Shown: one piece after another, positions 2 through 6,138 of the stretch
Layout: every line of letters starts with the position of its first letter
Position numbering within the stretch: the first letter of the stretch is position 1
Assembly (NCBI GenBank): GCA_026014495.1
Contig: JAOZIF010000126.1
Span: 1 to 15,866 of the forward strand
DNA length: 15,866 nt
Source of the DNA: Candidatus Bathyarchaeum sp.
GTDB taxonomy: Archaea; Thermoproteota; Bathyarchaeia; Bathyarchaeales; Bathyarchaeaceae
Direction: 5' to 3'
Notes under the pieces: generated by a model
Told to the model about the DNA's origin: nothing
The model's input: the letters and a program-made list of their open reading frames with translations, nothing else
Databases searched by the model: none
Translations under genes and position numbers: made by a program

Positions 2-415
2 TTAAAAGAATATGAATCCGCAGTCGACATAGCAAAAGCTATGGACGATGACATATCCAGGACAAAAAGCATCCTTGGAGAATACTTACGCAGACTAGAC
101 TCGATACGAAATCTAGCCGAGAGATCAAAGAAGATACGTGAAGTAGTCTTTAAGCTCGCTGGCAAAAAGTCAGCACAAAGCAGCCTCGGAGAGATAACCG
201 TCGGCGACCTAAGCGTAATCCTAGACGCAAACCCATTCCACGAACTAACAGCAATCGAGCAAGTCGTTCGCAGTCAGCAAGACAGGCTATTAGTACTCCA
301 AAAAGCACGCGATGCACTAAACTGGGTCGACCAAATAGGAGACACTGAAGGACTCAAGTATTTGGTTATGGAAAACGACGGGGTTCCAGAGAGAATTCTG
401 CTCAAGATCTCCTAG
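2..415 (+). CDS. Hypothetical protein, helical/coiled-coil N-terminal half; 5'-truncated or starting upstream of the called ATG at 41
   Basis: The frame is open from position 2 (LKEYESAVDIAKA-MDDDISR...), so ATG 41 may not be the true start. Heptad-like stretch ISRTKSILGEYLRRLDSIRNLAERSKKIREVV. Co-oriented with the two roadblock genes, 22-bp gap to the next gene. Confidence 0.75.
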   Translation, partial: LKEYESAVDIAKAMDDDISRTKSILGEYLRRLDSIRNLAERSKKIREVVFKLAGKKSAQSSLGEITVGDLSVILDANPFHELTAIEQVVRSQQDRLLVLQKARDALNWVDQIGDTEGLKYLVMENDGVPERILLKIS

Positions 416-437: not shown

Positions 438-1148
438 ATGAACAGGGAACCCTGCGCCATTGCCTTAACCACTGCATTAAATGAGATCCAAAAGGCGTAC
501 CCTGAAATCAAACATTCTTTCATTTTTACTCATAATAAATCAATAATTACTGGAGACCAAAAAACCGACGAAAAAACCATACAACAGATACTGGAATCTT
601 TAGAATCCTTAAAACAAAAAACAAAAACAATTGGCAATCTCAAAAGCTTTAGCGTCAACGGAAAAAACGGCAAACTAATCATATTCGACATCCAGGACAA
701 CTGCCTTGTCTTGGCAACATCCAAAAATATCGACAAATCTCACATTTACTCCATAACCCACGTAATAATTCCAACAATCCTAAAAACCATGGAAATATTA
801 ACACCTCCCACAACTCAAGTTACGCCACAAAAAAAACTGGTTGTTGACACACTCAGTGGATTCTTTTCCAGAGACTCTGTGCAAATTGATGCAGAAACAC
901 TAATTGAATGGACACAAAACCCTAACCCACACGACCAAACAAACTCTACAAGAACACAAGAAACCAGTCAAGAACCAATTGACCATGTCAAAATCGAAAC
1001 GATAAACGGTAATTCTACACTCTGCAAAGTTAAGGAAATTAACGACCAAAAACTGAAAGGAAAAAACATAATCAGAATTCCCGAAAAAATCTGTAACATA
1101 CTCGAAATCAAAAAAGGAGATACAGTAAAAGTTAAACCAATGACATAG
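438..1148 (+). CDS. Roadblock/LC7 (MglB/LAMTOR-like) domain fused to a C-terminal CDC48_N-like double-psi beta-barrel
   Basis: aa ~5-120 follow the roadblock alpha-beta-beta-alpha-beta-beta-beta-alpha pattern (ALNEIQKAYPEIKHSFIF...IGNLKSFSVNGKNGKLIIFDIQDNCLVLATS). A T/P/Q linker follows. The C-terminus has VQIDAETL...VKIETINGNSTLCKV...GKNIIRIPEKICNILEIKKGDTVKVKP, resembling the CDC48/VAT N-domain motif GIIRMD...GDxVKV. Assigned by eye. Confidence 0.65.
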   Translation: MNREPCAIALTTALNEIQKAYPEIKHSFIFTHNKSIITGDQKTDEKTIQQILESLESLKQKTKTIGNLKSFSVNGKNGKLIIFDIQDNCLVLATSKNIDKSHIYSITHVIIPTILKTMEILTPPTTQVTPQKKLVVDTLSGFFSRDSVQIDAETLIEWTQNPNPHDQTNSTRTQETSQEPIDHVKIETINGNSTLCKVKEINDQKLKGKNIIRIPEKICNILEIKKGDTVKVKPMT

Positions 1149-1158
1149 AGGTACACAA

Positions 1159-1515
1159 ATGCCAGACACAAAATCAGAAACAAAAAATAGCGAAGAAGAC
1201 AATGAAGAACTGCGAAAAAAACTGCAGGAACTTAAGAATCAAAAAGGAATACTTGGGTATATAGTAAGAGACTCTCAATCAGCATCAATAGATCTTAAGG
1301 ATCCCACAAAAATAATCGATTATGCGCTTCTTTCATCCACAGCCTTTGACATAGGATGTGACATGACAGAAACTCTGCAGATGGGCGAATTAGATAACCT
1401 AGTTGTGGAAAGCGAAGAAACAAAACTGTTATTCATGAATATCAATGACCGTCGTCTCAACATATTTATGGAAAAAAATGTTGACCACAACAAGTTGTAC
1501 ACGGACTTGAAATAA
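1159..1515 (+). CDS. Roadblock/LC7 domain protein
   Basis: LQELKNQKGILGYIV...LLSSTAFDIGCDMTETLQMGELDNLVVESEETKLLFMNINDRRLNIFMEK fits the roadblock pattern. GAGGT Shine-Dalgarno-like motif at 1148-1152. Confidence 0.8.
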   Translation: MPDTKSETKNSEEDNEELRKKLQELKNQKGILGYIVRDSQSASIDLKDPTKIIDYALLSSTAFDIGCDMTETLQMGELDNLVVESEETKLLFMNINDRRLNIFMEKNVDHNKLYTDLK

Positions 1516-1522
1516 ATTCCCC

Positions 1523-1543
1523 TTTTTTAAAAAGATTTTTTTT
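1523..1543 (+). terminator. Putative archaeal oligo-T terminator after the roadblock operon
   Basis: T6 (1523-1528) and T8 (1536-1543) tracts directly after the stop at 1515. Confidence 0.5.
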
Positions 1544-1771
1544 ATCAAACACGCCCTAAACAAAAACTGGCTCTGAAAAGCGATAATTAGGAACCCTATC
1601 AAACAATTTTCATTTACGTTACCACTTTGTTCAGATCTTCTAGTTTTGCTTTAGAAAATTGTTTAGCTGTAGCAGTTCAGAGATAAATCTAAAAGTGTTA
1701 CTATTGTAACTGGTCTTTACAGCGTAACATATTTGTATGTTCGATTTTGACGAGATGCTGAGTTGAGAAAC

Positions 1772-3097: not shown

Positions 3098-5738
3098 TCA
3101 GTTTTTGTTCTTTTTGTGCACGATTATCGTGAATTGGGCTCCTTTGCCGGGTGTACCTGTTTCTTTGATTGACCAACCATATGATTCACAAATTTTCTGT
3201 ATAAGATAAAGTCCATAACCTGTACATTTGCCATAGCCTTCATTGAAGATTAACTCTTTTTCAGCTTCGGGTATTCCTATACCGTTGTCCTCATAAATCA
3301 GCTGTAACATGTCGTCGTTTTCTTTGTAGTGCACCCTGATTTTGGTGACTTTTTTGCCATGTTTCATAGAGTTATCAATCAAATTGTAAAAGAATTGCAG
3401 CAGTTGTGAATCTGCCATTACAGTTAAACCGCAACATTCATTTTCGAGTTTAGTGTCGCCCAAACCTGAAAACAATATCACAGCTTCGTTGACAATCTTC
3501 TCAACATCCACGTAAGAGCGATCTTCTACTCCAATCATCTCATAGATTCTTGCAAAACCAAAAATATCAGTTATCTGACTAATAGCCAATTCAATCGAAT
3601 CCAAGTATTTTGAGGCACTGTGATTGGTCGTCAGACTTTGGTTAGCCAAATACACATTGTTTGCTATAACTGATAGTTTATTTCGGGCATCATGTCTAGT
3701 TGCTTTGCCAACAACACGTAGTTTTTCAATAACGCGCTCTAGTTCATTTACCATATTGTCAACTGCGATTTCTGCATTTTTGCGGTCAGTGATGTCACGA
3801 AATGTTCCTTGGAGTATTCTTTTGTTATTTACTGTAAATTCAGATGCTTTGATTAGAACATCTTTGATTTGCCCTTTTTTAGTTATAATTTGCGTTTTAT
3901 CAATGCTTTTAATTTTTTCGTCACAATGTTTCTTGAAACCTGGTGTAACACCTTTTGTGCACTCTTCTGTAGGATGAAGGATACGTTGAGTTTTGCCAAT
4001 TAATTCCGATTTAGTTCTGCCAACTAGTTTGGTTGCTGCGCGGTTGCAGTCAACTATTATTCCTGTTTTAGCATCAGCCAAGAAAATAGCATCAAGTGCC
4101 TCCTCAAACAGTTTACGATATTTTTCTTCAGAATTCTTTAGTTCGTGTTCAACCTTTTTGTTTTCGGTGACATCTTTTAATATGCCTACAGCATAAACGT
4201 TACTTCCAACTGTAATCGTTTTCAAAGATAGTTCAATTGGGACTCTTTTATGGTCCTTCGTAAGCCCAACAGTGAAGAATGGTTTTCCTTCAGGTATATT
4301 ACCAGTATTTTCAAATTTTTGTACTCTAGGTCTAGCTTGGGGAAGAACATCTGGAGGAACTATAGAAAAAATCTTTTTTCTGGTTATTTCTTTTTTTGAA
4401 TAGCCAAAAATTTTTTGGAATGCGTTATTGCAGTAAGTAATATTCCCTTTCGGGTCAATTAGAGCTATTGCATCATTTATGGAATTTACTATAGTGCTAA
4501 ACTTTTCTTCGCTTTCAATTAACGAGTCTTCAGCTTTCTTTCGTTCGGTTATGTCTAATGCAATTTCTGTTGCACTAATTATTTCGCCATTTTCATTTCT
4601 TATTGACGTAGCAGTTATATCAAGATGTGTGTAATTCCCAGTTGGACCTAGAATTACTTGGTTGTGAGTAATTTGGTCTTTTCCTGTTTCAAAAATCTCT
4701 TTTACTCCACAGTTAGAGCAAACGGATTTTCTATGGTGCAAGGCAGTGTAACACTTTTTCCCGATTACGTCACCGCATGCATCAAGTATTACCTTGTTTG
4801 CGTAGAGAACCTTGAAATCTTTTGAAATTACAGTTAAGCCCAGCACTAGTATTTTTTGTAACCGTTTCAAGCATTTCACGTTGTTGTCTAATTGCATTTT
4901 CAGCGTTCTTGCGTTCTGTAATGTCGACATTATACCCATTCCAAATAATGCTTCCATCCGCTTGTTTTTCAGGCACAGATTTCCCTAACATCCACTTGAT
5001 GGAACCACCCGGAAGTTGGACTCTGTACTCGCACTCCCAAAGAGTAAGATTTTCAGCTGAAAAAAGGATTGAATTTAACACTTTATCATAATCTTGTGGA
5101 TGAATAACGTTGATAATTGGAGAAAAATCAGACTTTACCGCTTCCGGAGAACAACCAAAGATTTCTTTGATAGCGTTTGTAGAAAAAGGTACACAAAAAG
5201 TACCATCAATGTTCATTTTAAACTGATATACCATGCCGGGCATCTGAGATGAAATTTTTAGAAACCGTTCTTCATTTTCTTTTAAAGCCTGTTCTATTTT
5301 GCGTTTTTTTATAAGTTGTTGCAGGTAATATGATAATTCCCCATAAACTGTTTCGGGTTTACCTACTTTGTTAATATACTGATTAGCACCAAGATTCAAC
5401 GCTTTAATTGCAACATCTTCTCTGCCTTTTCCGGTAAACAGAATAAATGGAATATTTTTGTCTTTTTTTCTCAATTCAGTTAAAAACGTTAGTCCGTCTT
5501 TTTCTGGCATCTGATAGTCAGAAACAATCACATCAAAATCTGTGACCTCCAGTTTTTTCATCGCTTTTTTAACTGATGAGGCTGTTTCGATTTGAAATGG
5601 ACCAATTGTTTCCAAAATTTGTTTTGTGGTTGTTAGTAAACCAAGTTCATCATCTACATGTAAAATATGGATTAGTTGTTCCTTTTTGATGGGTGTAGTA
5701 GAGTGGATGAATTTTAATTCTACAACAGGAGTTACCAT
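3098..5738 (-). pseudogene. Hybrid sensor kinase REC-PAS-PAS-PAS-PAS-HisKA-HATPase interrupted by a 1-nt frameshift (true pseudogene, sequencing error or recoding)
   Basis: ORF 4782..5738 carries REC (LHVDDE, SDYQMP, FTGKG, K) plus PAS. ORF 3098..4957 carries three PAS domains, H-box HDARNKL, N-box NLIDNSMKHG, DNGIGI and GYGKCTGYGL. Removing one base from CCC at 4839-4841 joins them (..VTKNTSAG-LTVISKDFKVLYANK..) into 2640 nt, 879 aa. Confidence 0.85.
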
Positions 5739-6138
5739 AGTGATTACTCAACTTTTCGTCTAGTATTAACTCATATTCCTAAACCATCACGCATACAACA
5801 TTTAACAATTATGGAATTTAGGTATGAATCTAAAATATAGTCGTTCTGATTCTGAATATATGTAATGTTTATTTTATTTTTTTGTATTGATAATGTAAGC
5901 ATAAACATAAACGATGCATCTCCTCGATTAAAAAAACAATAATAAAACCACGAATTGCTAAATAGGTAGTCTTCATTAACAACTATACTCCTACAAACAA
6001 TTAGCAAAATCACCAAAAAACCAACCAAAAACAAGCATAAATATTTCGCAAATACACATATCCAAAACAACATCAACTGTTTTAAGCATGACAAAACACA
6101 AATAATAGACGTACAAAAAAGCTACATTGGTGAAAAAA

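Follow-up and report, generated by a model that had tools for sequence, protein, structure and literature searches.

A Bathyarchaeial Roadblock protein carrying a C-terminal Cdc48/VAT-N-type double-psi barrel, encoded in a conserved gene cluster with a pilin-like protein

The locus and its conserved gene order

The window, by which we mean the whole stretch of 15,866 nt analysed here, opens with three tightly spaced genes on the forward strand. The second of these (P0001, hereafter the target) is the subject of this study. It lies 22 nt behind the gene for a coiled-coil protein and is followed after 10 nt by the gene for a Roadblock paralogue, P0121 (Table 1). A T-rich tract past the last of the three genes likely ends the transcription unit, as far as this can be read from the nucleotides themselves.

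Table 1. Features around the target gene (positions in the window; aa numbers refer to the target protein unless given as a length)
Feature	Position	Strand	Basis or remark
Coiled-coil/beta protein, 3' part (137 of 141 aa), first of the tight trio	2..415	+	5' end cut by contig end
Target gene P0001, Roadblock plus double-psi barrel, 236 aa	438..1148	+	ORF, homologues, AlphaFold model
Roadblock/LC7-fold domain, aa 1-125	438..812	+	model, VIA matches, Pfam in relatives
Flexible P/T/Q-rich linker, aa 121-131	798..830	+	low pLDDT, variable length
Double-psi beta-barrel, aa 132-235	831..1142	+	model, VIA, Pfam CDC48_N, PDB profile matches
Low-complexity insert, aa 161-181	918..980	+	alpha1-beta3 loop of first barrel half; pLDDT about 60
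Roadblock paralogue P0121, 118 aa, with acidic disordered N-terminal tail	1159..1515	+	BLASTP to target
T-rich tract past the last gene, likely transcription-unit end	1516..1550	+	read from sequence

The target reading frame starts with ATG and is uninterrupted, and its translation is identical to the one quoted in a first-pass annotation of this DNA. In a 90%-clustered protein collection it has 378 homologues at E<=1e-3, most of them 235-238 aa long, which stem from Bathyarchaeota metagenomes and MAGs. All of these share the residues at their N-terminus, which shows that the start codon is correctly assigned. An exhaustive search of 1.84 billion cluster representatives, clustered at 50% identity, returned 199 homologous representatives, 136 of them with E<=1e-10, and those records among the relatives that carry a name are assigned to Candidatus Bathyarchaeum or Bathyarchaeota. 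The reading frame is a real, conserved gene of the Bathyarchaeia.

The comparison of gene order drew on contigs from JGI, MAGs from NCBI, one complete chromosome and, from three families, nine genomes of GTDB. Five genes on one strand follow each other in the order winged helix-turn-helix (wHTH) protein (~110 aa), pilin-like protein (~140 aa), coiled-coil protein (141 aa), target, and Roadblock paralogue (116-173 aa). This order is kept wherever the locus extends far enough, in all three families and even where identity of the target drops to about 30%. A divergent member with three barrels (P0218) has other upstream neighbours. In our window the contig starts inside the coiled-coil gene, and the pilin gene therefore falls outside the 15,866-nt stretch. 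Directly 3' of the target, the Roadblock paralogue is found in all those loci which reach that far, and P0121 itself is recognisably related to the Roadblock domain of the target (BLASTP E 3e-5).

Full-length 141-aa orthologues of the coiled-coil protein are encoded directly 5' of the target in all loci that include upstream DNA (e.g. L001:7553-7978). Within the same genomes its mean column identity is 84%, compared with 27% for the target, and of the 21 genomes sampled in the host's order, the 10 that have its gene are precisely the 10 that have the target gene. A search for homologues returned only near-identical sequences, which added no diversity for its structural model (pLDDT 76.8). In the model a single strand is combined with two hairpins and a pair of long antiparallel helices. 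A fold search of the PDB gave nothing significant, the best matches, with E about 0.1, being prefoldin beta and a protein without assigned function (4dci), and a feature search of the Atlas produced a weak YlqD lead (0.81), so that the fold may be called prefoldin/YlqD-like without a significant match. In a three-chain prediction of the target with the downstream Roadblock protein and the coiled-coil protein, the latter as the scored partner, ipSAE values of 0.24 and 0.00 were obtained (mark 0.32), which speak neither for nor against a complex. Distant, stand-alone homologues of the coiled-coil protein occur in at least 19 other Thermoproteota genomes (E 3.5e-6 to 2e-25), and none of nine such loci inspected has a Roadblock neighbour. 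Several of the stand-alone genes have a small His-rich protein encoded next to them (L038, L039, L044), and one (L042) has a pilin-like gene as its neighbour.

Beyond the cluster, the window differs from some relatives in gene content. At 3098-6094, on the reverse strand, three genes (a PAS histidine kinase, a receiver-PAS protein and a 107-aa ORF) lie between a tRNA-binding gene and an fba-pfk pair, while in the relatives L001 and L004 the pair directly follows the tRNA-binding gene and this three-gene insertion is lacking. Conversely, three genes that are missing here stand between the Roadblock gene and UbiA in some relatives (L001:9207-10553); they encode a 186-aa protein with a weak DUF7509 match, an HTH_20/ArsR-like regulator and a Laminin_G_3 protein.

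Family range and the fold of the two domains

When 201 genomes drawn evenly from the phylum were searched, the target family was found, as a single copy, in 10 of the 21 genomes of the host's own order and in none of the 180 genomes outside it. Annotation pipelines have labelled its members as COG Roadblock/LC7/MglB or, in the case of two-barrel forms, as MazE/AbrB (JGI). The first-pass annotation knew of no characterised protein with this architecture, and in the literature that we searched we likewise found no description of a Roadblock domain joined to a double-psi barrel.

The alignment of 86 diverse, full-length family members (A1), proteins some 250 aa long, extends over 449 columns and has a mean column identity of 27%. 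When domain HMMs made from A1 were run on 152 family representatives, a Roadblock domain was found with one barrel in 98, with two barrels in 13 and with three barrels in 2, while the remainder had only the N-terminal or only the C-terminal domain and were mostly fragments. As relatives carry one to three barrels on long linkers, the barrel is an independent and repeatable module.

The structure of the target was modelled with AlphaFold2 from the 86-sequence alignment (mean pLDDT 89.6). Residues 1-121 have the order alpha-beta-beta-alpha-beta-beta-beta-alpha (H3-20, E24-31, E36-39, H45-62, E70-75, E78-85, E88-94, H100-121), and the roadblock-like fold that had been proposed from the sequence for this region is borne out. 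With VIA, residues 1-124 matched Roadblock3 of Prometheoarchaeum (9jue; Z 14.7, rmsd 2.5 Å over 114 residues), the C-terminal roadblock domains of Rag proteins in Rag-Ragulator complexes (Z 14.3-14.6, with 5x6v at 14.6, and 6nzd), MglB (6hjm; Z 14.3), Roadblock proteins of Streptomyces (Z 13.9-14.1) and a Roadblock protein of Thorarchaeota (7f8m; Z 12.9). Foldseek matches of the model to Roadblock structures had E-values of about 1e-5. By sequence the relationship is far less obvious: Pfam Robl_LC7 does not match P0001 at E<=1, nor did it match in the genome scan, and it is matched at E<0.01 by just 6 of the 86 relatives (best E 4.4e-6), which marks the target as a divergent member of the Roadblock group.

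The target thus shares its fold over residues 1-121 (Z 12.9-14.7, rmsd 2.0-2.8 Å) with the Roadblock/LC7 proteins MglB, MglC, LAMTOR2/3 and Asgard Roadblock1-3 (PF03259, COG2018), and, as in the MglB/MglC and LAMTOR pairs, a second Roadblock gene adjoins it. It differs from them in that Pfam Robl_LC7 does not match it and in that no partner GTPase was detected, either among the clustered genes or elsewhere in the genome. We know of no characterised Roadblock/LC7 member that has a C-terminal barrel.

Between the two domains lies the linker rich in threonine, proline and glutamine that was noticed at first reading. In the model it is a low-confidence segment, with pLDDT averaging 60 for the block 121-130, and its length varies strongly across the family.

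The C-terminal domain is predicted to be a barrel of six strands, built within one chain from two homologous beta-beta-alpha-beta halves (E132-139, E147-150, H152-160, E183-187, E193-200, E211-215, H216-222, E229-235). Its best structural matches in VIA, searched with residues 128-236, were designed barrels derived from VAT/Cdc48 (Z 12.2-12.4, the highest being 7dww with 12.4; rmsd 1.8 Å) and the barrel of Thermoplasma VAT (7dbo; Z 11.9, rmsd 1.9 Å over 83 residues), followed by Msm0858 (Z 11.5), Pex1-N (Z 10.9), plant CDC48A-N (Z 10.8), UFD1 and VAT-N (1cz5; Z 10.6 each), the N-domain of AMP phosphorylase (4ga5; Z 10.2) and NSF-N (Z 10.0). RNA polymerase barrels were also among the matches. 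Foldseek placed the target close to the VCP-like barrel of A. pernix (7dg9; target-normalised TM-score 0.84, rmsd 2.1 Å). Structural searches of the AlphaFold model thus identify the C-terminal domain as a double-psi barrel of the Cdc48/VAT-N type, as had been suggested, and not as an unrelated fold, just as they identify the N-terminal domain as Roadblock.

The resemblance to CDC48/VAT N-domains had originally been aligned by eye, and it also holds up statistically. Pfam CDC48_N matches P0001 with E 5.1e-5 over profile positions 23-83 of 85, although the score of 23.8 bits misses the gathering score of 35.1 bits, and 17 of the 86 family members are matched at E<0.01. A profile restricted to the barrel (A4), searched against PDB sequences, found VAT-derived barrels with E 7e-7 to 1e-3 and Cdc48 of A. 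pernix with E 2e-3. In comparison with the Nn barrel of VAT, Cdc48 and p97 and with Pex1, NSF and Ufd1 (CDC48_N, PF02359), the target has the same barrel (Z 10-12, rmsd about 2 Å, 82-89 residues) and the motif G-x-G-I-x-R/Q-I ... G-D-x-V-x-V in common. It differs in its sub-gathering Pfam score, in the absence of the Nc beta-clam and of AAA+ domains, and in the placement of its barrel, which is C-terminal, hangs by a tether from a Roadblock domain and occurs in two to three copies in some relatives. The target ends one residue past the barrel, and there is no Pfam match to CDC48_2 or AAA.

The low-complexity insert seen in the sequence is real, in that it corresponds to a loop of low pLDDT, but it does not lie between the two barrel halves as first described; it is located within the first half. 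The loop is shorter in the family consensus and in P0101 and P0117 (much so in P0101), its length being lineage-specific.

The N-terminal barrel of archaeal AMP phosphorylase mediates multimerisation, and among the matches listed the AMP phosphorylase N-domain 4ga5 is the natural structure with the highest identity to the target barrel (30% over 81 aligned residues). The target might accordingly be an oligomerisation scaffold, whose barrel would self-associate and, jointly with the coiled-coil protein, bring Roadblock dimers into higher-order complexes, and tandem barrels as found in relatives would favour such multivalent assembly. We give this idea hardly any credence, as the likeness to the AMP phosphorylase N-domain is limited to the shared half-barrel motif and the Z-score of 4ga5 is lower than those of the VAT barrels. 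A specific kinship of the target barrel with the Cdc48- or AMP-phosphorylase-like N-domains of its own host was considered and rejected, the HMM matches covering just a short half-barrel motif with 5-11 bits. The host genome also contains, unlinked to the cluster, a weak CDC48_N match (G000:C97:15500-15742) at the N-terminus of a 520-aa ORF (L030); this ORF probably encodes an enzyme of the AMP phosphorylase type that starts with a double-psi barrel.

DNA binding, GTPases and unfoldases

The most conserved motif of the barrel, G-x-G-x-I-x-I-P-x-K ... G-D/E-x-V-x-V, resembles the DNA-binding domains of AbrB/SpoVT proteins at least as much as it does VAT-N. With proteins of the AbrB/SpoVT/MazE group (PF04014) the second barrel half has the motif G-x-x-x-I-P-x-K...L-x-I-x-x-G-D/E-x-V in common, and it is strongly basic, with a mean net charge of +6.5 (median pI of the whole barrel, 9.0), while the Roadblock domain, the coiled-coil protein and the second Roadblock protein are acidic. 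A strongly basic half with such a motif fits nucleic-acid binding. The double-psi barrel and the AbrB-type fold are reportedly held to be evolutionarily related, as cradle-loop barrels.

A serious rival to a role as a pilus subunit (see below) is that the target regulates transcription, its basic barrel half binding DNA in the manner of AbrB, SpoVT or MazE, for example at the pilin or wHTH promoter. The Roadblock domain would then dimerise or sense a signal, and either the coiled-coil protein or the Roadblock protein encoded downstream might titrate it. Matches in this direction are weak and repeated. Pfam MazE_antitoxin/AbrB reached E 0.017 on P0001, missing the cut-off (15.5 versus 24.7 bits), and matched 3 of the 86 relatives; the AbrB regulators 5itm and 2l66 appeared with E 0.016-0.04 in PDB profile searches, AbrB regulators reaching about 0.02 with the barrel profile A4; and one two-barrel relative has been labelled as the antitoxin component of a MazEF toxin-antitoxin module (JGI). 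A cluster of Bathyarchaeota proteins in the ESM Atlas, in which a winged-helix DNA-binding domain (HTH_24/FaeA) is fused to Robl_LC7, points the same way, and suggests that Roadblock has been reused with several output domains in this lineage.

We nevertheless consider a regulator of this kind rather unlikely. In AbrB-type proteins two chains form the swapped-hairpin barrel, whereas the model of the target is no swapped-hairpin homodimer of ~50-aa units: its two units lie in one chain and form a six-stranded double-psi barrel. All structural matches listed for the C-terminal domain are double-psi barrels; AbrB-type swapped-hairpin structures were absent from the best 50 matches listed by Foldseek or VIA, a result that covers the top of the two lists. 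The first barrel half is acidic and without the basic motif, one to three barrels on long disordered linkers would be unusual for a repressor, and the cluster already encodes a wHTH protein.

Roadblock proteins are usually discussed as partners of small GTPases, and the Cdc48/VAT-N barrel as the substrate and cofactor port of AAA+ unfoldases. From these associations the first-pass annotation had proposed an adaptor linking roadblock/GTPase signalling to substrate recognition or AAA+ unfoldases. In such a model, a small-GTPase regulator like MglB or LAMTOR would use its barrel to hand substrates or cofactors to Cdc48/VAT or another AAA+ protein. The folds themselves speak for it, as the Roadblock domain is best matched by MglB, LAMTOR and the C-terminal domains of Rag proteins, and the barrel by the adaptor- or substrate-binding N-domains of p97, VAT, Pex1, NSF and Ufd1; two canonical Cdc48/VAT genes are also present in the host genome. 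These are, however, unlinked to the cluster, to which no AAA+ gene is linked at all, and the barrel profile matches the Cdc48 N-domains of the host through the short half-barrel motif only. The Nc subdomain, which forms the cofactor groove of p97-N, is missing from the target. None of the conserved clusters examined contains a GTPase gene, and the host genome (93% complete) yields no Ras/Arf match and a sole, sub-threshold match to Roc inside a 606-aa ORF. The proposed adaptor therefore finds no support from its surroundings and appears to us very improbable. A pilin cluster devoid of a GTPase makes an accessory or regulatory protein of a pilus the likelier assignment. As a separate observation, the same 93%-complete genome encodes Roadblock-fold proteins though it has no Ras/Arf match.

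A possible role in a type IV pilus-type system

Two genes 5' of the target, the conserved cluster encodes a pilin-like protein with a class III signal peptide, which passes the NCBIfam model TIGR02537 (archaellin/type IV pilin N-terminal domain) with 30.3 bits at a cut-off of 20 and weakly resembles UpsA. In one sublineage (L013, CP070754.1) the cluster adjoins, divergently, the genes for a T2SSE ATPase and a T2SSF platform protein, and in another genome (G141) a T2SSE gene lies about 4 kb away. In 8 of the 9 relatives that were checked, among them G162, whose genome is complete on a single contig, no T2SSE gene is found near the cluster. The host genome has three T2SSE genes and further pilin-like genes, located elsewhere than the cluster.

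Archaeal type IV pilus loci often contain genes for Roadblock proteins of arCOG02603, which have been described with a single Roadblock domain and without a function (Makarova, Koonin and Albers 2016, PMC4858521). The target is, by gene context, likewise a Roadblock-fold protein beside a pilin with a class III signal, and in L013 the cluster also lies beside T2SSE/T2SSF assembly genes; it is set apart by the fused barrel, the second Roadblock protein and the coiled-coil protein. We think that it is best filed with both the Roadblock accessory proteins of archaeal pilus loci and the cradle-loop barrels, as a variant within each.

Of the possible functions, we tentatively favour a cytoplasmic one, in which the target serves a type IV pilus-type system as an accessory or regulatory subunit. 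Its Roadblock domain may dimerise, either with itself or with the paralogue encoded downstream, and in this way provide a Roadblock platform of the usual kind. From there the tethered barrel, of which relatives have one to three, would bind a protein or peptide partner belonging to the pilus system, comparable to the barrels of VAT, p97, Pex1 and Ufd1. A small GTPase would apparently not be involved, and the outcome might be an effect on the assembly or the expression of the pilus.

A more far-reaching form of this proposal seems quite unlikely to us. In it, a GTPase-independent pair of Roadblock proteins and a free-standing substrate-recognition barrel of the VAT-N type would constitute a new cytoplasmic switch or adaptor of the archaeal type IV pilus machine. 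By analogy its role might, with equally little assurance, be likened to the way in which MglB/MglC control the polarity of bacterial pili, a cradle-loop barrel and not a G-protein serving as the output module. The barrel would then be, and this too we regard as a long shot, a natural double-psi barrel that has retained an AbrB-like motif. If this were true, it would bear on how the double-psi and AbrB folds diverged.

The family is found in just one order of uncultured Bathyarchaeia, and its direct physiological reach is therefore modest. Its members nonetheless present the Roadblock domain and the VAT-N barrel outside their usual settings, joined in a single protein, associated with a pilin operon and in a genome without a detectable small GTPase. 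If their biochemistry were worked out, it would provide a first function for the Roadblock genes that recur in archaeal type IV pilus loci, and also a natural, modular double-psi barrel with an AbrB-like motif, repeatable in tandem, for the study of how cradle-loop barrels have evolved.
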